Assembly (NCBI GenBank): GCA_030390025.1
Contig: CM059431.1
Span: 150,662,001 to 150,726,000 of the forward strand
DNA length: 64,000 nucleotides
Source of the DNA: Squalus acanthias
Taxonomy: Eukaryota
Direction of reading: 5' to 3'
Numbering within the stretch: the stretch's first letter is position 1; every line of letters starts with the position of its first letter. The notes below the pieces were generated by a model, which was given only the letters and a program-made list of their open reading frames with translations, did no database searches and was not told the origin of the DNA. Below, one piece after another: positions 1,053 through 57,275 of the stretch. The position numbers were made by a program, and so were the translations under genes.

Positions 1053-1356
1053 AATTGTATCGTATCTTTTGATAAGTCATTTGTAATTAAATAATTTTTC
1101 CATTGTAGATATTTTCGTTTTGGTGAAAGGGCTAACCGATTGGAATTGTTTTCGGTGACAAGGCATCTAAGCTGTGGTTCACCACATCCTCGCTGTTAGC
1201 TGTCCAACAAAGTCCCAGACGACATTGATTTGAAGACAAAGTTCAGAGTTGCTGAAGAAGAGAACCGGAACGTGGGTTACACAAGCAAAGAAGGACACAA
1301 CCTAGCTCCGGCTGAACACAGAATACTGAAAGTATAAAAGACTGAACGAAAACAAA

Positions 1357-2139
1357 ATGAGGAACGTCATACACTTGCGTGTCCCGAAAAGGAAAATATT
1401 GCTTCTCATTGTTGTGTTTGTAGTTTGTTATTTTGTATCACTGCACATGGACGGACAGGCGGATATGTTCCCCACAACTTTGCAAAAATCTTCACGGAAA
1501 CCGAGACAGACGTGCAGAGAGATGCTTCATGATGTTCTTGATATCACCGAAAAAGATTCAAATTGCTTTGAAATAATCAGTAGCAACGAGGAAACCTTTC
1601 GAAGTTTGACCAATTTAACTGGAATCGGAAACAAAGACCCGCACTTAACGGAAATCGATTATGTAAATGTTTGCACAGATTGCGCTTCTTTCATCAAATC
1701 CCACAAATACATAACTTTCCCCATAACCAGCGAGGAACGCGATTTCCCCATTGCCTATATCATTCTGATCCATCATAAAATTCAGATGTTTGAGAGACTT
1801 TTAAGGACCATTTATGCGCCGCAGAATGTGTACTGTGTCCACGTGGACAGGAAGTCTCCACAACCATTTCATTCGGCAGTCGCAGCCGTCGTCTCCTGTT
1901 TTGATAATGTCTTTATCACCAGTAGATTGGAAAGCGTGGTATACGGATCATTTTCCAGGCTCCAGGCCGATATCAACTGCATGAGCGATCTGGTAAGAAG
2001 CACGAGCCCATGGAAATATCTCATCAATCTATGCGGACAGGATTTACCGATCAAAACTAATGCAGAAATAATCAAAGAACTCCTTTCTGTCAATGGTAGA
2101 AACATAATAGCATCTCATCCACCAACAGCATTGAAAAAG
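1357..2139 (+). CDS. GCNT3: Core-2/I-branching beta-1,6-N-acetylglucosaminyltransferase (GT14), GCNT3-like, coding exon 1
   Basis: N-terminal type II TM segment (ILLLIVVFVVCYFV); motifs EERDFPIAY, FERLLRTIYAPQNVYCVHVDRKS, SRLQADINCM, WKYLINLCGQDLPIKTN. Donor AAG|GTATAT at 2139/2140, phase 0. Paralogue identity (GCNT3 vs GCNT1/4) is from recalled similarity only. Confidence 0.88.
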
Positions 2140-2227
2140 GTATATTGTTACATCGGATGACAATTTATCTGTCTGTCTTCCTCTGTTGCGCTATTCAACA
2201 GTTTATCTCTCTCTCTCTCTACTTACA

Positions 2228-3010
2228 CATCCAATCACTCTTCCATTTAATCATCAATCTACCAATCTATTCATTCATTCTTCCATTCATTCATGTATTC
2301 ATTCATTCATTCATTTATTCACTCATTCATTCATTGATCCATTCACTCATTCATTCATCCATTCGTTCATTCATTCACTCATTCATTCATTCAACCATCC
2401 ATTCGATCATTCATCCATCCATTATGACATCCATTCATCCATCCATCATGTCATTCATTCATTCATCCATTCATTATTTCATTCATTCATTCATTATTTC
2501 ATTCATTCAATCATTCATTCATCCATCCATTCATTCATCCATTCATTCATTATTTCATTCATTCAATCATTCATTCATCCATCCATCCATTCATTCATCC
2601 AATCATTAATTAAATAATTAATTAATTAATTAATTAATTCATTCATTCATTCATCCATTCGATCATTCATCCATCCATTATGAAATTCATTCATCCATCC
2701 ATTATGTCATTCATTCATTCATCCATCCATTCAATCATTCATTTATTCATTCATTCATTAATTCGTTCATTCATTCATCCATCCATTCATTCATTCATTC
2801 ATTATTTCATTCATTCATTCATCCATTCATTCATTCATCCATCCATCCATCCATTCATTCATTCATTGATTGATTCATTCATTCATTCATCCATCCACCC
2901 ATCCAATCATTCATTCATTCATTCATTCATTCATCCAACTATTCATCCATCCATTCATCCATCCAGCCGTCCATCCATTCGTTGCTCCATTCATACATAC
3001 ATTCATCCAC
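2228..3010. repeat. Degenerate (CATT)n/(CATC)n microsatellite, intronic
   Basis: Directly visible tetranucleotide array with a short (TTAA)n run near 2605-2640. Confidence 0.95.
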
Positions 3011-4110
3011 GAATAGGAAATAGGAGCAGGAGCAGGCCATTTGACCCTTCGAGCCTGCTGCGCCATTCAATAAGATTATATATGATCTTCTGCCTCATCT
3101 CCACTTTCCTCAAATATCCCCATTTGCCTTGATTTCCTTAATATTCAAAAAGCTATTGATGTCTGTCTTGAATATATTCAACGACTGAGCCTCCACAGGC
3201 CTCTGGGGGTAGAGAATGCCAAAGATTCACCACACTCTGAGTGAAGAAATTTCTTCTGATCTCAGTCCTAAAAGCCCGATCCCTTATTCTGAGACTTTGA
3301 CCCCCGATTCTAGAATCCCCAGTCAGGCAAAACATCCTCCCAGCATCTACCCTGTCAAGCCCTGTAAGAATGCTGTATGTTTCAATGAAATCACCTCTCA
3401 TTCTTCTAAACTCTGGAGAATACAGGCCTAGTCTACTCAATCTCTCCTCATAGGACAGTCCCCCCATACCAGGAACCAGTCTTGTGAACCTTCGTTGCAC
3501 TCCCTCTATGGCAAGTATATCCTTCCTTAGGTAAGGAGACCAAAACTGTACACAATACTCCAGGTGTGGTCTCAACAGGGCCCTATATAATTGCAGTGAA
3601 ATGTCTTTACTCATATTCTCAAATTCTCATAATAAAGGCCAACATACCATTTGCTTTCCTAATTGGTTACTGTACCTGCATATGTTAACTTTCAGTGATT
3701 TGAGTGCAAGGACACCAAATCCCTCTGAACACCAACATTTCCTCATCACTCATCATTTAAAAAATACTCTGCTTTTCCATTTTTCCTACCGAAGTGTAGA
3801 ATTTCACATTTCTCCACATTATATTGCATTTTCCATGCTCTTGCCCAATCACTTAGCCTGTCTATATCCCATTGGAGCCTCCTTGCATCCTCCTCACAAC
3901 TTACAATCCCACCCAGCTTTGTATCCTCCGCAAACTAGGATATATTACATCTGGTCCTCTCATCCAAATCGTTGATATAGATTACGAATAGCTGAGGCCC
4001 AAGCACTGATCCTTGCTGTACCCCACTAGTTACAGCCTGCCAACCCGAAAATGACCCGTATTTCCTACTCTCTGTTTTCTTTCCGGAAAACAAATTCTGA
4101 ATCCATGCTC
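3011..4110 (-). mobile_element. CR1 LINE 3' fragment (RT C-terminus and 3' UTR) inside the GCNT intron
   Basis: Minus-strand ORFs with [14 protein letters not shown] and RPHLEYCVQFWSPY...RRNFFTQ; frameshifted. Confidence 0.92.
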
Positions 4111-4119
4111 GTATAGACA

Positions 4120-5010
<891 letters not shown>

Positions 5011-5301
5011 CACCCACATATAATAATTAATATAATTATGCGTTAATGGCGAGTGGAGTTTCACAACATAAACCGATTTATTTTCCCACATAATAAGCAA
5101 TGGTTCCTGGTTGGGCTCGTTTGTCCTTACTTCTTACTCCGAAGTATTCATTCAAATCAGCATAAATAGACGTTTCCCGTTCGCCCTGCGTGGAGACAAG
5201 ATGCGAATTCATTGAAACGGTTCTGTTGCAGGCACATTTACTGTGAGTTTTAACAGCGAATGATTGGTGCTCATAATCCTTCCTCTTTGTGTCACTTTCA
5301 G

Positions 5302-5895
5302 AAACGGTGGCAGTACCGATATCGGGTTGGCAGCGTTGTATGGCGGACTGGTCACTTGAAAGAGCAGCTAACAAATATCACGGTTTTCGCGGGAAACGCG
5401 TATTATGCGGTTACTAGGGAATTTGTTAAACACGTGTTGAGGAGCCCCGAAATCCAACAGTTCTTAAAGTGGTCTGAAGACACCTACAGTCCCGATGAAC
5501 ACTTTTGGGCCACTATACACAGAATGCCTGGCGTTCCCGGCTCTAGCCAATTTAGTGGTCCATCCGTTCCACCAAATGTCCCTGTCGTCCCGCGGTTGAT
5601 AAAATGGCAGGTCCTGGAACGTGTGGGGAAGGAGGGAGGCAGCTACTCGCCCTGCGCAGGTATTCACCGCCACGGTATCTGTGTCTACGGCGCTGGAGAC
5701 TTGCACTGGATCCTGCAGCATCAGCACCACCTGTTTGCCAACAAGTTCGACGCTGCAGTGGACAACACAGCAGTGAAATGCATTGAGGAATATCTCAGAG
5801 AAAAAGTCATTAACGGAAACAGTTTTCTGCCCTGTGAAGAAGAGGAAACGCGGCTGGATGATTCCACCAGTTGTTTTGAGTCAGCAACGGGATGA
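5302..5895 (+). CDS. GCNT3: GCNT3-like coding exon 2 (spliced product ~458 aa)
   Basis: Pyrimidine tract plus TTTCAG acceptor ending 5301, in frame with exon 1 (..PPTALKK|KRWQYRY..). Motifs FAGNAY, catalytic YSPDEHFWAT, ICVYGAGDL, FANKFD; stop TGA at 5893-5895. Confidence 0.88.
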   Translation, partial: KRWQYRYRVGSVVWRTGHLKEQLTNITVFAGNAYYAVTREFVKHVLRSPEIQQFLKWSEDTYSPDEHFWATIHRMPGVPGSSQFSGPSVPPNVPVVPRLIKWQVLERVGKEGGSYSPCAGIHRHGICVYGAGDLHWILQHQHHLFANKFDAAVDNTAVKCIEEYLREKVINGNSFLPCEEEETRLDDSTSCFESATG

Positions 5896-14600: not shown

Positions 14601-14920
14601 TGCAGACGACACAAAGCTGGGTGGGCTTGTGTGCTGCGAGAAGGATACTGCGAAACTCCGGGATGATTTGGACAGGTTGGGTGATTGGGCAGAAGCGTGG
14701 CAGATGCAATATAACGTGGATAAATGCGAGGTTATCCACTTTGGTGTCAAAAACAGAAAGGCAAACTATTATCTGAATGGCAATAGAGTGGGAGAAGGGG
14801 AAGTGCAACGAGACCTAGGTGTCCTTGTGCACCAGTCGCTGAAGGTAACCATGCAGGTGCAGCAGGCGGTGAAGAAGGCAATGGTATGTTGACCTTCATA
14901 GCGAAAGGGTTTGAGTATAG
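11678..14920 (+). mobile_element. CR1 LINE 'B', 5' part: ORF1 SGNH/GDSL esterase domain, then ORF2 AP endonuclease and RT (decayed)
   Basis: ORF1 motifs VIGDSIVR, CLPGARVKDV, VVHIGIN, DCLHL. APE motifs LNARSIRNK, VYRPPN, DFN, SDH. RT motifs LDFQKAFDKV, PQGSVLGP, FADD. Confidence 0.92.
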
Positions 14921-15114
14921 TGTGGTAACACAATACAGCTTCCTGTGACTCGAACTTTATTACATCACTTCCTGTGATTAGTCCAGGATAAATACTGGGC
15001 TGATCAGTTGGATCCTGGAGAGGCATAGAGTAAGACCTCTTTTGTATGTAGCACCTTTTTAGTTGATTAAAGCTTACTTTAAGTTCACCACGCGTAAGGC
15101 TCATTCTTACGACA
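14921..15114 (+). repeat. Gypsy 5' LTR (194 bp)
   Basis: TGTGGTAACA...CTTACGACA, direct repeat of 19208-19401. Confidence 0.97.
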
Positions 15115-15192
15115 ATTTAATCAACTTTGAAAAACTTCGCACTCAAACTTTTTGGACGAACTCGGAACTAAGGATCCAGGGAATCACCCATC

Positions 15193-18100
15193 ATGGAAAA
15201 CATCCTTAAACCATCGCGTCTTGACTTGGACCCAAACACCCCAGCAGCCGGTAAGGTGTGGAAACACTGGTATCGCACGTTTGACAATTTTCTCGAATAT
15301 TGCAAGGCTGATGATGACTCAAAATTGCGGATACTCATCAACTGTGTCACCCCGAATGTATTTCAGTATGTCGAGGAATGGGGCAGTTACGAGGAGGCAA
15401 TTCGGACGCTTAAAAGACTATATACTAAGACACCGAATGAGGTCTATGCCAGACATCTACTAGCTACAGCCCAACAAGGGCCGGAGGAATCCATTGATAA
15501 ATTCCTCCAAGAGCTTCGCAGACTTAGTATGGACTGTAACTTTCAGGCGGCCTCAGCTGAGCTGTACCGTGAAGAAATGATCCGTGATGCTTTCATCTGC
15601 GGGCTTGCCTCCCCATTTATACGCCAGCGTCTACTGGAAAGTAAGACACTTGAGCTTCAGAGAGCTTATGACATGGCTTGCTCTCTAGATCTGGCAAAAA
15701 GAAATGCAGACCTTTATACAGTGCCCAGACCTCGGTCTGCTGCCTTAACTACAGTCAGGCAATTTAAGAGGCCACAGGTGAACTCTATTAGGGAGGACTT
15801 TATCCCTGACGATCAATCTGATGACTTCACTGATGAAGAGGATGATGACCCCACTGTGGCAGCCTCTTGGCAATCTAAGAAATGCTTCTTTTATGGTGAT
15901 GAGTTTCACCCTCGGAAATTCTGCCCTGCTCGCAATGCGTTTTGCAGTCATTGCAACAAAAAGGGTCATTTTGCAAAGGTTTGCCTATCAAGAGCCTCTA
16001 CGAGGGCTTATCAAGCTAAGTCCTACCGAACTGCCCCGGTAAGGGCCTATCAAGATGTTCCGGCTAAAATCTATCGTGCTTCCTCTCGGGTTTTCTCTCG
16101 AAGAAACACACCTAGAGTTTCAGCCAGTCTTTGTGCAACGACACCAATTACAGCTGCTTGTCCTCAGAACCTATTCCATGCAGCTACAAAAGCATCAATT
16201 AATGGACATACTTTAGATGCCTTAATTGACTCAGGTAGCACTGATAGTTTCATTAGGGAACAGATTGTTGCAGAGTTAAAGCTACATGTTTTCCCATCGG
16301 ACCAGGCAATTGCGATGGCTCAGTCATCACTTAATACCAGAATTTCTGGCTTTTGTATGGTTGAAATAACACTTAATGGTCACAGGTATCCCTCCACCCG
16401 GCTTTCGGTGCTCAAGGACTTATGTAGTGATCTTATCTTAGGGCTAGATTTTCAAAAGCAGCATAAGAAGCTCACCATTGAGTTCGGCGGATCCAAACCT
16501 GAACTCACTATTTCTAATATACGACCTCGATTACCGTTCTGTGCATTGTCAGCAGCTTCACTGGATGAACCCTCACTGTTTACCAGTATCCCTCCTCGAT
16601 GCAAACCGATTATAACAAAGTCACGACGTTTCAGTCAGGAAGACCAGTCTTTTATTGCGGCTGAGATTTCTCGGCTTTTAGCAGAGGATATCATCGAGCC
16701 TTGTTCGTCGCCATGGCGCGCCCAGGTCGTTATTGTTAAGAACCCTCTACAACCTCACAAGAAACGGCTGTGCATTGACTATTCACAGACCATCAATCAA
16801 TATACGGACTTGGATGCATACCCATTGCCGCGCATCGATGATATGGTTAATAAACTGGCTGAGTAAACGGTGTTCTCAACATATGATCTGAAAAGTGCCT
16901 ATCATCAGGTACCCTTGAAGGTCTCAGACAAGCAGTATACGGCCTTTGAAGCCAATGGACGGCTGTATCAATTTCGTCGCCTCCCCTTTGGGGTCACTAA
17001 TGGAGTGGCTGTCTTCCAGCGAGCAATGGATGACCTGGTCAAACAGGAAGACTTAAAGGATACGTTTCCTTATCTGGACAACATTACTGTCGCAGGTCGC
17101 AATCAGCGGGAACATGACGCCAATCTCCAACGATTTTGGGATGCACTCCAGCACCGTAATTTGACATTAAATGCGGCTAAATCCATTGAGTCACAACCAA
17201 CCATCAACATCCTTGGTTATTGTGTGGGCAATGGCATCATTAAACCTGACCCTGAAATGCTTCGCCCACTCCAAGAACTCCCGCCACCTAAGAATCCGGC
17301 CTCCTTGCGCCGGGCCCTCGGCCTGTTTGCATACTATGCTAAATGGATTCCTAACTTCTCGGACCGAATCCAACCTCTACTGAAGGCCAGCACATTCCCA
17401 CTAGACACAGCGGCTGTTGCAGCCTTTAACCTCCTGAAAAAACAGTTGGAGAAAGCGGCTCTTCACTCCATCGATGAGAGTCTTCCTTTTGTTGTTGAGT
17501 GTGATGCCTCGGAGGTGGCGATCTCGGCCACTCTGAATCAGGAAGGTCGTCCGGTGGCATTTTTGTCCAGGACTTTTCAAGGGGCTGAGCTACATTATCC
17601 TCCAGTCGAGAAAGAAGCTACAGCCATCATAGAGGCAGTACGGAAGTGGACTCATCTCCTAGCTCGCCAGCACTTTACCTTAATCACAGACCAGCGATCG
17701 GTCGCCTTCATGCTCGATAATCGAAAACGGACCAAAATTAAAAATAATAAAATCTAGCTTTGGCGGCTGGAATTGGCCTCTTTTGGTTACACCATCCACT
17801 ATCGACCTGGCAAGAAGAATGTGGCTCCGGATACCCTCACACGAGCATTCTGCTCCGCAATGGCACCCTCTACGCTCGTAGACATCCATGATGGGTTGTG
17901 TCATCCGGGCGTTACTCGCATGCTACACTTCGTGCGGTCCCGAAATCTCCCATTCTCTACCGGGGATGTAAAGAAGATGTGCTCGGACTGCAGAGTCTGT
18001 GCGGAATTGAAACCTCAGTTTTTCCGCCCCTCGGGTGGTATACTCATACATGCGACCCAGCCAATGCAACGGCTTAGCATCGATTTTAAGGGGCCGTTGC

Positions 18101-19143
18101 CCTCTTCAACTCGCAACACTTATCTATTGACCATGGTCGATGAGTATTCCCGTTTTCCATTTGCCTTTCCCTGCCCCAATATGCTGCCGACCACGGTTAT
18201 CAGCTGCCTTGAGCAGGTATTTGCTTTCTGTGGCATGGCATCCTATGTTCATTCGGATCGGGGCCCTTCTTTTATGTCAGGAGAACTCAAGGCCTATCTC
18301 TCGGAACGGGGTATTGCTGCCAGCAGAACGACGCCTTATCATCCGGTCGGGAATGGGCAAGTCGAGCGTTTTAACGCTATCATCTGGAATGCGGTACGTC
18401 TGGCTTTGAGATCTCGGGGCCTACCCAACCAGCAATGGGAAGCAGTACTTCCAGACGCATTACACTCCACACGGTCCCTCCTTTCGACCGCCACAAATAC
18501 GACGCCTCATGAACGGTTCTTCCGATTTCAGCGTCGCTCATCCTATGGGATATCTCTCCCGTCGTGGCTGACTGCACCGGGACCAGTGCTACTCCGAAGA
18601 TATGTTCGGGCGTCTAAGAATGACCCCCTGGTAGATGAGGTTGAGCTCACTGACGTCAACCCTACCTACGCCTATATTCGGTATCCTGACGGTCGGGAAT
18701 CTACCGTGTCATTGCGGGATCTGGCTCCCTGCCCGCCGAAACATAGAGGGACACCAGGGGATGATATTGTACCAGGCACATCTCTGGGCTAGCCAGGTGC
18801 CTCTCATCACGATCTGGATCTGACGCCGGCTGGTACCTCACTCCAGCGTGCCGACCTGGGGCAGACTGACTACGAGCCCGTCGGGGCTCGCACGCGCAGC
18901 CACGATCCACCCCATACCATACGCTCGGAAACGGATCTACCACAGCCCTGCCTGACACCCGTTCGGGCACCAGTACACAGTCAGGATCGTCCTGACCCCT
19001 CACATAGCGGGCTGGATCACTCGGACTCTGGTCCACGGCCCACGATGGGTAAACGGGCTCGGGGCCCTCTACCGCTACGAGAACCCAAACGGGTGCGGCT
19101 CTCCCTCGTCCAGCGGCTACGTAATGGAGGGAGAATGTGGTAA
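15193..19143 (+). pseudogene. Gypsy gag-pol single reading frame with three in-frame stops
   Basis: ORFs at 15193, 16870 and 17773 share one frame; stops at 16864-66, 17755-57 and 18790-92, after which the frame reads on to ..RNGGRMW* at 19143. Zinc knuckles (..CSHCNKKGHFAKVC), protease LIDSGS, RT DLKSAYHQ/PFG/YLDN, RNase H CDAS..EKEA..TD, integrase HHCC plus IDF..SDRG..VER. Confidence 0.93.
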
Positions 19144-19207
19144 CACAATACAGCTTCCTGTGACTCGAACTTCATCCCGGCCTCCTAATCTTTTTGGGGG
19201 GGGAGAA

Positions 19208-19401
19208 TGTGGTAACACAATACAGCTTCCTGTGACTCGAACTTTATTACATCACTTCCTGTGATTAGTCCAGGATAAATACTGGGCTGATCAGTTGGAT
19301 CCTGGAGAGGCATAGAATAAGACCTCTTTTGTATGTAGCACCTTTTTAGTTGATTAAAGCTTACTTTAAGTTCACCACGCGTAAGGCTCATTCTTATGAC
19401 A
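19208..19401 (+). repeat. Gypsy 3' LTR (194 bp)
   Basis: Direct repeat of the 5' LTR, preceded by PPT GGGGGGGGAGAA. Confidence 0.97.
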
Positions 19402-20018
19402 TATAGGAACAGGGATTTCCTGCTGCAGTTGTAAAGGGCCTTGGTGAGACCACACCTTGAGTACTGTGTGCAGTTTTGGTCGCCTTATCTGAGGAAGGAT
19501 GTTCTTGCCATGGAAGGAGTTCAGCGAAGATTCAGAAGGCTGATACCTGGGATGGCAGGAAAGACATATGAGGAGAGATTGCGTCGATTGGGATTATACT
19601 CGCTGGAGTATAGAAGAATGAGAGGGGATCTCATCGAAACATATACAATTCTGACAGGTCTGGACAAACTAGATGCAGGAAGAATGTTCCCGATGGTCGG
19701 AGAGTCCAGAACCAGGCATCATAATCTAAGGATAAGGGGTAAGCCATTTAGGACAGAAATGAGGAAGAATTTCTTCGCCAGAGAGTGGTGAACCTGTGGA
19801 ATTCTCTACCACAGAAGGCAGTTGAGGCCAAGTCATTAAATATATTCAAGAATGAGTTAGATATATTTCTTAAAGCTAAAGGTATCAAGGGATATGGGGA
19901 GAAGGCAGGTACAGGCTACTGAGATTGGATGATCAGCCATTTTCTCATCGAATGGCGGAGCAGGCTCGAGGGGCCGAATGGCCTACTCCAGCTCCTATCT
20001 TCTATGTTTCTATGTTTC
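19402..20018 (+). mobile_element. CR1 LINE 'B', 3' part
   Basis: Continues the reading GFEY|R across the Gypsy TSD; RPHLEYCVQFW; ends in a CTATGTTT tail. Confidence 0.92.
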
Positions 20019-31884: not shown

Positions 31885-32498
31885 TTAATTCTTCATTTTA
31901 TTAACCAATATCAGAATCAATGTCCAGGGAGATTTCACCACCTTCAACAAATCTTGCCTGAATTTGGTTTGTGTCGCGTCTGACTGTCAAACAATTAAAC
32001 AGTAATATCAAAGCAACAGCAAAACCATGGAACTAAAATACTTTGAATGCGGATATAGGCTATGCCTGCAGGCGATGAATAAAAGGCTTCATTGGGGCGG
32101 CATCCCCAGGAAACATTGTTAATGATTCGTTGAGATTGATAGGAGAAAGCAAAGGGGATATTCTCTATACAGACCAGGACAAGGACAGTTGTTAAAACAG
32201 CTGCCGCAGTTCTCCCTGTGCAATAGTTTGTTTTAAACTTCTGACAACATATAGTTACAAATCGGTCAAAAGTGAACAAGACTGTAAACCACACCGACAT
32301 ATCCAGGGTGACGGTATTGAAGTAATGAATCGACTTACACACGGCAGTGTAGGACAGGAATGAATGCGGAAAGTGGTAACAGAAAATGGAAGATGATGAC
32401 CAGTAGATCTGCTGTCGCCATGGCCACCATGTAGATCGAGATACATTTGGAAAGGCCGCAATTTCCTCTGGAGAGAATCAGGATTGTCCGTAGGTTCG
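31885..32498 (-). pseudogene. GPR139/GPR142-like class A GPCR pseudogene, exon 2 (copy 1)
   Basis: Acceptor TTACAG|CGAAC; LDMSVWFTVLFTFDRFVTICC, WGCR and TQTKFR motifs. Contains small deletions/frameshifts and a ~280-bp deletion at ~31978 removing TM6-TM7 relative to copy 2. Confidence 0.88.
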
Positions 32499-56373: not shown

Positions 56374-57275
56374 CGAACCTACTGACAATCGTGATTCTCT
56401 CCGGAGGAAAATGTGGTCTATCCAAATGTATCTCTGTCTACATGGTGGCCATGGCAACAGCAGATCTACTGTTCATGATCGTCAATGTGCTGCTGTACCG
56501 TGTTTTTACATATCACTTTCCAAAGTCATTCCTCAGTTAAACTGCCGCCTGTAGGTTGCTTATATACTTGAATGCTGCTGCCCTCGATATGTCCGTGTGG
56601 TTTACCGTCACCTTCACATTCGACCGCTATGTCGCGATAAGTTGTGAGAAGATTAAAACGAAATATTGCACAGTCAGAACTGCGGCCGTCGTCATAACAA
56701 CGGTCTCTGTTCTGCTCTGCTTGGACAATATCCCCTATTCGTTTGCATATGAAACTGACCGAATAATTAACAATATTCACTGGGGTTGCCGCTTGAAAAT
56801 TGGCTTTTTTACCACGTCTGTTGGTACAGCATTCATCTGGTTAGAAAGTGTTTTAAGTGTAGGGCTTCCTTTCGCTTTGGTATTACTGTTTAATTGTTTG
56901 ACAGTCAGACGTATTTTAGTGGCCAGTAGAGCCCGCAGGAGTCTCCGGGGTCACAGCAGTGAGAATCAGAGCGACCCAGAGATGGCGAGCCGGAGGAAAT
57001 CCATCATTTTACTGTTCAGTGTAACAGGCAGTTTTATAGTGTTGTGGCTGACATGTATCGTTAGTTATGCAATTAACACCCTGGTCATTTTTGATCGTAG
57101 CGATTATACATCTCCTGCATACATCGCCTCTGCGACCGGATTTATGCTCATGTATTTGAGCTCCTGTACAAACATGTGCATTTATGCAGCGACCCAAACC
57201 AAATTCAGGGAAGAGCTGGTGAGATTAGTGAAAGCTCCCTGGACATTGATTCGGAACTTGGTTAACAAAATATGA
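56374..57275 (+). pseudogene. GPR139/GPR142-like GPCR exon 2 (copy 2), intact except one nonsense codon
   Basis: Acceptor TTACAG|CG; ANLLTIVILS, AMATADLL, FDRYVAI, RRKSIILLF, TNMCIYAATQTKFR. In-frame TAA at 56538-56540, where copy 1 has TAC (Tyr). Confidence 0.9.

Follow-up and report, generated by a model that had tools for sequence, protein, structure and literature searches.

A candidate self-priming Gypsy-type retrotransposon in Squalus acanthias and a clade of its animal relatives

Known self-priming elements and the element in the window

Self-priming of LTR retrotransposons is in print for the Tf1/sushi chromoviruses, the plant element Tcn1 and the TAR element (PMC6317226, PMC4600332, PMC10085805, PMC2864245, PMC5341516, as far as the consulted parts of these papers go). 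According to the sections consulted, Tf1 and Tf2 of Schizosaccharomyces pombe, Tj1, Tosmo/Tcry and the Tf1/sushi chromoviruses carry a primer-binding site (PBS) that is complementary to their own LTR with an 11-nt core, and the RNase H of Tf1 cleaves behind base 11 (PMC7175516, PMC4600332, PMC10085805); a three-duplex pretzel is also described for Tf1 (in part of PMC10085805). For the plant elements Tcn1 and TAR (Ty1/copia), self-priming was predicted from LTR-PBS complementarity alone, and the available part of that source describes no link to a poly(A) signal (PMC6317226). Besides their plant hosts, they differ from the elements reported here in belonging to another superfamily or chromovirus branch, and on that partial account the presence of self-priming in TAR indicates that it arose more than once. 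To our knowledge, proof of self-priming has so far come only from the yeast element Tf1. Full-text literature searches gave no report of self-priming in a non-chromovirus animal Gypsy clade, which Repbase notes, outside that scope, may mention, nor of a primer carrying the poly(A) signal, nor of a YxDN reverse transcriptase (RT) motif.

The window is the whole stretch of 64,000 nucleotides of Squalus acanthias DNA that was analysed, and its positions 14921-19401 hold a very young, complete Gypsy-type retrotransposon of 4.5 kb (Table 1). The element shows the characters of Ty3/Gypsy elements, including LTRs that run TG...CA, a target-site duplication, a polypurine tract, the order protease, RT, RNase H and integrase, and the lack of env; Ty3 Gag-Pol was the best PDB match of its protein. 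Forty scored copies out of 891 candidates, the copy in the window included, were all identical across LTR and leader. Among 20 sister copies that were fetched, the 3' LTR was found in 17, of which 14 were identical to the 5' LTR in the window and 15 had an exact 5-bp target-site duplication. The element sits in a non-LTR retrotransposon, whose endonuclease and RT frames were recognised in the flanks with Pfam.

Table 1. Coordinates of the element and its features in the window
Feature	Position	Strand	Remarks
Target-site duplication TATAG, 5 bp	14916-14920	+	Second copy at 19402-19406
5' LTR, 194 bp, TG...CA	14921-15114	+	2 differences from the 3' LTR
TATA-like box GATAAATA	14987-14994	+	Only one within 140 nt of the motif
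Candidate self-primer AGTTGATTAAA	15061-15071	+	Terminates in ATTAAA (15066-15071)
Hairpin from the first base past the candidate primer	15072-15084	+	Predicted cut between 15071 and 15072
7-bp hairpin, U5 stem-loop-like position	15093-15111	+	Arms 15093-15099 and 15105-15111
Primer-binding position TTTAATCAACT	15116-15126	+	Exact complement of 15061-15071; no TGG
Single gag-pol frame (Gag, protease, RT, RNase H, integrase)	15193-18792	+	In-frame stops at 16864 and 17755
Two Gag zinc-knuckle arrays (CCHC-type)	15883-15984	+	First array degenerate in the window copy
RT catalytic motif YLDN	17071-17082	+	Aligned with YLDD of Ty3 RT
Extra purine tract and 37-nt copy of the LTR start	19126-19172	+	72 nt ahead of the true one
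Polypurine tract adjoining the 3' LTR	19197-19207	+	
3' LTR	19208-19401	+	Motif copy at 19348-19358 with no complement behind it, so that its poly(A) hexamer would be free

Minus-strand priming must occur directly behind the terminal CA of the LTR. Here this CA is followed by one A and then by the 11-mer TTTAATCAACT, and the TGG-starting PBS is indeed absent, as the initial annotation had noticed. Direct sequence comparison agrees with its central claim that this 11-mer is the exact reverse complement of AGTTGATTAAA within the LTR, which is referred to below as the motif. The 7-bp hairpin that it described between the two arms is also present, but its pairing is not perfect (six Watson-Crick pairs and one G-U pair), and its position on the U5 side has a counterpart in just 7 of the 24 families introduced below. 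The ATTAAA that ends the motif is the sole AATAAA/ATTAAA of the LTR region. The fold of 15061-15126 has a predicted energy of -15.3 kcal/mol (z = -3.64), which 1 of 200 shuffles equalled; with 60 extra upstream bases, z is only -0.52. In four control elements with a TGG site, no self-complement exceeds 5 nt.

Some further features of the window were observed. The extra purine tract with its copy of the LTR start recurs in all 17 sister copies that were read, and a contig of another sequencing run has a different spacing in this region; the tract may have arisen by an accident of strand transfer that became fixed, or it may act as a second start of the plus strand. Two frames within 1330-5895 match the Core-2/I-branching glycosyltransferase family (PF02485) and are probably pieces of a host gene, and two others, 56541-57275 on the plus strand and 31995-32477 on the minus strand, match rhodopsin-family GPCRs (PF00001).

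Covariation of the LTR motif and the primer site

The loci fetched comprised 87 of relatives and 30 from a second search in the S. acanthias genome. Among 43 foreign loci that held the Gag start together with upstream DNA, 37 have a clear duplex between LTR and PBS. The remaining six include two imperfect duplexes (L062 and L116), one locus that is probably misassembled and three without a recognisable LTR; the initial screen had found no inverted repeat in three of the six and a spurious top repeat in the other three. One of them, L062 (60-118), is a close relative with a longer LTR, an imperfect, bulged fold-back and no poly(A) hexamer, and may represent a family that moved its primer. Elements of the clade were also seen on contigs filed under bacterial metagenome-assembled genomes (L141-L147), most likely through host contamination.

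The junctions between LTR and leader amounted to 39 distinct sequences, from which L136, having lost the terminal CA, and L159, with a 5-nt insertion, were excluded. The rest were grouped into 24 families at 80% gag identity, each represented by its first member. Over positions 1-11, 261 of the 264 base pairs that these families can form with their own LTR are Watson-Crick pairs, three are mismatches and none is a G-U pair, and the duplex is perfect (11/11) in 21 families, although 22 distinct 11-mers occur among the 24. Across families, 67% of the positions paired and 4 of 552 combinations were perfect. In 5000 shuffles of the families, a mean of 181 of 264 positions paired and no shuffle matched the observed 261. 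That so many positions pair despite so many different 11-mers, and so many more than in the shuffles, argues that the pairing of LTR and PBS is under selection. Mapped on the RT tree of 23 families (L148, with no RT in hand, was left off the trees), the junctions require at least 62 double changes over 13 positions. Two checks that the initial annotation had named were in its favour: the complementarity is kept among relatives with differing letters, and the two arms covary by compensatory change. The register is constant too: all 24 families, whose loops range from 21 to 87 nt, have the first base of the antisense arm exactly at the priming position, and a TGG start of the primer site occurs in none of them. 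The duplex is 11-18 nt long, and 13-18 nt in most families.

Compensation was also seen within one genome. A second family of S. acanthias contains a subfamily with a double change, and 24 of its 28 motif-changed junctions have the matching PBS change. Among the PBS-changed junctions (30 of 43 matches were fetched), 17 of 30 are compensated and 13 are not; the compensated junctions represent one event. Eleven of the 13 uncompensated changes fit CpG decay, nine of which could equally be uncorrected G-U intermediates.

The motif is closed by AATAAA or ATTAAA in 17 of the 24 families, and in 15 of these 17 it is the sole such hexamer nearby. The canonical hexamer is missing at the motif in the other seven families, so that the link with the poly(A) signal is not universal. 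A hairpin of at least 4 pairs lies directly 3' of the motif in 15 families, against a shuffle mean of 7.1 (1 of 1000 shuffles was as high), and is better conserved than the U5-side hairpin (15/24 against 7/24). Of its 68 pairs, 12 are G-U, compared with 0 in 261 for the main duplex, a contrast that would follow if copying rewrites the main duplex or if its perfection is needed, for example for cleavage. Pairing of the leader and loop as in the three-duplex pretzel of Tf1 did not rise above the cross-family control in the 24 families (mean z +0.2; 0/24 below -2), and a pattern search of the genome for poly(A)-tailed genomic copies gave none. In many families the hairpin behind the motif opens, by eye, with CCT...AGG, like the anticodon stem of tRNA-Thr. 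In L077, L078 and others, the duplex ends right at the Gag start codon or only a few bases from it, and in these elements the fold could also affect translation.

Encoded proteins and placement of the clade

The two zinc knuckles in Gag and the absence of a chromodomain, both claimed by the initial annotation, were borne out. None of 30 proteins of the clade matched a chromodomain family (E <= 0.01); none of the 30 matched the GPY/F (SH3_Tf2-1) module either, and its motif was not evident in the alignment. Two CCHC arrays occur in 86 of 121 proteins, partial proteins counted. The RT motif could be read in 115 proteins and is YxDN in 103 and YxDD in 12, the latter in the families that branch off first and also in some nested proteins. 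In the RT tree, from which 6 of 12 extra proteins and one outgroup were left out, a long branch (support 100/100) separates the 23 self-pairing families from seven outgroups. Four YxDD families branch earliest, so that, if the root is right, the fold-back seems to be older than YxDN. By alignment, the YLDN of the window element corresponds to the D214N substitution of Ty3 RT, which replaces the last aspartate of YLDD; in the consulted part of its description, this mutant kept polymerase activity in vitro and its transposition was abolished (PMC5371799). Unlike the Ty3 mutant, YxDN is here the natural state in a family with many identical young copies.

The clade differs from the Tf1/sushi elements in several respects: it lacks the chromodomain, the GPY/F module and the pretzel and has two zinc knuckles, its duplex of 11-18 nt usually bears a poly(A) hexamer, its RT is mostly YxDN, and the named hosts of the relatives are crustaceans, cnidarians, tunicates, a nematode and cartilaginous fish. 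SH3_Tf2-1 matches in the S. acanthias genome were considered as chromoviruses and rejected, because they look like endogenous retroviruses instead. L209 and L216 (G000:C8 and C1), which served as outgroups, are LTR elements of 8-9 kb with a retrovirus-like RT and an SH3_Tf2-1-like integrase end and likewise look like endogenous retroviruses.

The initial annotation had ascribed Mag-like traits to the element, and this description stands for Gag. As here, the Mag cluster (Mag, SURL and Gulliver; A, B and C clades) combines two CCHC arrays with the lack of a chromodomain, and Gag aligns with that of a Mag-like element of the S. acanthias genome at 24.5% over about 210 amino acids; unlike this clade, that element has a TGG site. 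In the RT tree the clade did not join the partial RT of that element, a single degraded and long-branched outgroup, which we take to be Mag-like from its PBS motif. The GxV/I motif listed for the C-terminus of the Mag integrase was not evident in the 15 of 59 aligned rows that were inspected by eye.

The clade is possibly Cigr-1, to which it is likened by the GyDB character row. Cigr-1 of Ciona intestinalis is the founder of the clade that bears its name. It was reportedly described by Simmen and Bird in 2000 as an element with short LTRs and a single ORF of about 1200 codons, combining a Mag-like Gag with a non-Mag RT. The GyDB row for Cigr-1, in the part of the source consulted, lists two CCHC arrays, loss of GPY/F, no chromodomain and no env (PMC2774666), and all four characters are found here; the Cigr-1 protease flap (TANG/GANG) is unmatched, and the table coding may be coarse. 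The Cigr-1 clade has been reported from molluscs and annelids in the consulted parts of two studies (PMC6238403, PMC8556966). Searches for named relatives gave no relatives in viral collections, no matches to reference elements with Retrotrans_gag and none among the supplementary peptides in part of the files of published clade studies. A second protein search gave no named reference, and an Atlas search gave generic Gag clusters only.

Primer, transcription start and alternative explanations

Self-priming by the 5' copy of the LTR segment is, in our judgement, quite likely the explanation of the complement, and self-priming outside the Tf1/sushi group appears well supported by the compensatory changes together with the lack of chromodomain and GPY/F. 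In a new transcript, 15061-15071 would fold onto 15116-15126. The same duplex would hide the 5' ATTAAA from the 3'-end machinery and leave the copy in the 3' LTR free; such masking is suggested because the complement follows the 5' LTR only. Inside the particle, cleavage by the element's own RNase H would follow at 15071/15072, next to the small conserved hairpin, as in Tf1; minus-strand DNA synthesis would then start from the 3' end so released, one or two bases away from the edge of the LTR. Strand transfer would use the 10-30 nt that separate the cut from the poly(A) site. When the retained primer is copied into the plus strand, the primer site would be rewritten with the sequence of the LTR segment; this would account for a duplex that is perfect and free of G-U pairs. 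Cleavage after the motif, priming and primer retention are proposed by analogy with Tf1, as described in part of PMC7175516.

The start of the transcript decides whether the primer would be its very 5' end. The initial annotation proposed a start at about 15061. Against it speaks that pairing continues upstream of the 11-mer, with 42 of 48 pairs at positions 12-13 (shuffles 20) and 42 of 72 at positions 14-16 (shuffles 28). In the window family, the TATA-like box GATAAATA lies 75 nt upstream of the motif and would place the start near 15017; in the second family of the genome, TATAAAT lies 103 nt before the motif end, about 90 nt upstream of the motif. A TATA-like word within 140 nt was found in 5 of 24 families only. 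In L086 and L112 it stands about 28 nt before the first base of the motif and would fit a start there, so that, with the boxes of this genome's two families much farther upstream, there is no common TATA rule. The 11-mer opens with AG in 15 of 24 families, which fits a start at 15061, and the context of 15061 seems to us to resemble an initiator. A splice-built primer was also considered for this AG and rejected, because the duplex runs across it in unspliced sequence. Neither a transcript start or end nor a poly(A) loose end showed up in the assembled contigs of 8 of 15 runs; the one run that is certainly RNA gave internal pieces of the element only. We consider it somewhat probable that the primer lies inside R, transcription beginning about 45-60 nt farther upstream; that the primer is the very 5' end of an RNA starting at 15061 is a possible reading that falls short of being probable.

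The alternatives to self-priming by the 5' copy differ in what they make of the duplex. A chance inverted repeat in an A/T-rich stretch would suit the A/T-rich arms and the ordinary fold in longer context (z -0.52), but an 11-mer complement of this kind is expected in the LTR of one element at about 1e-4 (6e-4 across five offsets), and its persistence with different letters in the 37 of 43 foreign loci and the 24 families, that is, the covariation itself, already refutes chance, so that we put its probability at practically nil. The duplex might also merely suppress polyadenylation in the 5' LTR while some other primer is used, as the canonical hexamers that close 17 of the 24 motifs would allow; occlusion alone, however, would neither fix the register of the arms at the priming position in 24 of 24 families nor forbid G-U pairs, and the perfect duplex persists in families without the canonical hexamer, which makes this reading very improbable. 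Slightly less so, yet still with little probability, the primer could be the 3' LTR copy once the tail behind the hexamer is trimmed, with a transcript start at or after 15072. Such a segment exists near the RNA 3' end regardless of the start site, and pairing beyond the 11-mer, which exceeds the shuffles at positions 12-16, requires no special start, but RNase H would be expected to destroy a 3'-copy primer during minus-strand copying of the 3' end; with such a primer the second strand transfer would lack its PBS overlap, and the PBS could not be templated.

Comparison of the PBS with host tRNAs, a check named in the initial annotation and made here with part of the host tRNA set, gave a divided result. 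A pattern made from the complement of the primer site retrieved host tRNA-Ile and tRNA-Thr genes. Nucleotides 14-24 of tRNA-Thr, in the D-arm, pair with the window PBS at 11/11 with one G-U, tRNA-Thr(AGU) genes (L304, 1454-1527; L307; L311) match window 15059-15073 at 14/15, and the relative L079 has a perfect 13-nt complement of tRNA-Thr, its cluster reaching 13/13 with two tRNA-Thr variants. The commonest letters across the 24 families match the tRNA-Thr D-arm at 14/15, and on a 20-position family profile the D-arm reaches 13.2 bits, a value like those of the lowest-scoring members, whose chance is about 1-8%, depending on the background, for 5000 tRNA sites. On these grounds a host tRNA-Thr or tRNA-Ile fragment ending past D-arm nucleotide 24 might be the primer, at least in the window family, with the LTR-PBS pairing just regulating access and hiding the 5' poly(A) signal. 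The same D-arms fail most relatives: with G-U allowed, full pairing with the best Thr/Ile D-arm is seen in no more than 4 of 24 families, so that tRNA priming does not explain the clade; of 264 cells, 39 are mismatches and 21 are G-U pairs, whereas the own LTR gives 3 mismatches. Primer sites served by tRNA are near-invariant within a clade, unlike the 22 different 11-mers here. The tRNA segment belongs to the D-loop region and is neither the 3' end nor an anticodon half, Rfam gave no tRNA-like match in the LTR, and the D-arm comparison window was picked post hoc. Priming by such a fragment therefore appears quite unlikely. A broader proposal joins the two RNAs: the clade would have switched from tRNA priming to self-priming when the LTR acquired or mimicked the tRNA-Thr D-arm as a built-in primer doubling as poly(A) signal, some families would be primed by either RNA, and the duplex would control 3'-end formation and replication as a single switch, which an RT with a natural YxDN site would read. 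This proposal is speculative, and we regard it as unlikely.

If self-priming by the 5' copy of the LTR segment is the right reading, self-priming would be no peculiarity of Tf1/sushi elements; it would also be the rule in a large and distinct clade of animal Gypsy elements, one that would be actively spreading in a vertebrate genome. It would also be a second solution of its own design, in which the primer is the poly(A)-signal segment, so that one short duplex could both block premature polyadenylation in the 5' LTR and supply the primer. The elements would lack the tRNA site that host tRNA fragments supposedly target. The 24 families provide ready-made compensatory variants, and the split between YxDN and YxDD offers natural enzyme pairs for probing the role of the last catalytic aspartate, which are informative because the same change stops transposition of Ty3.
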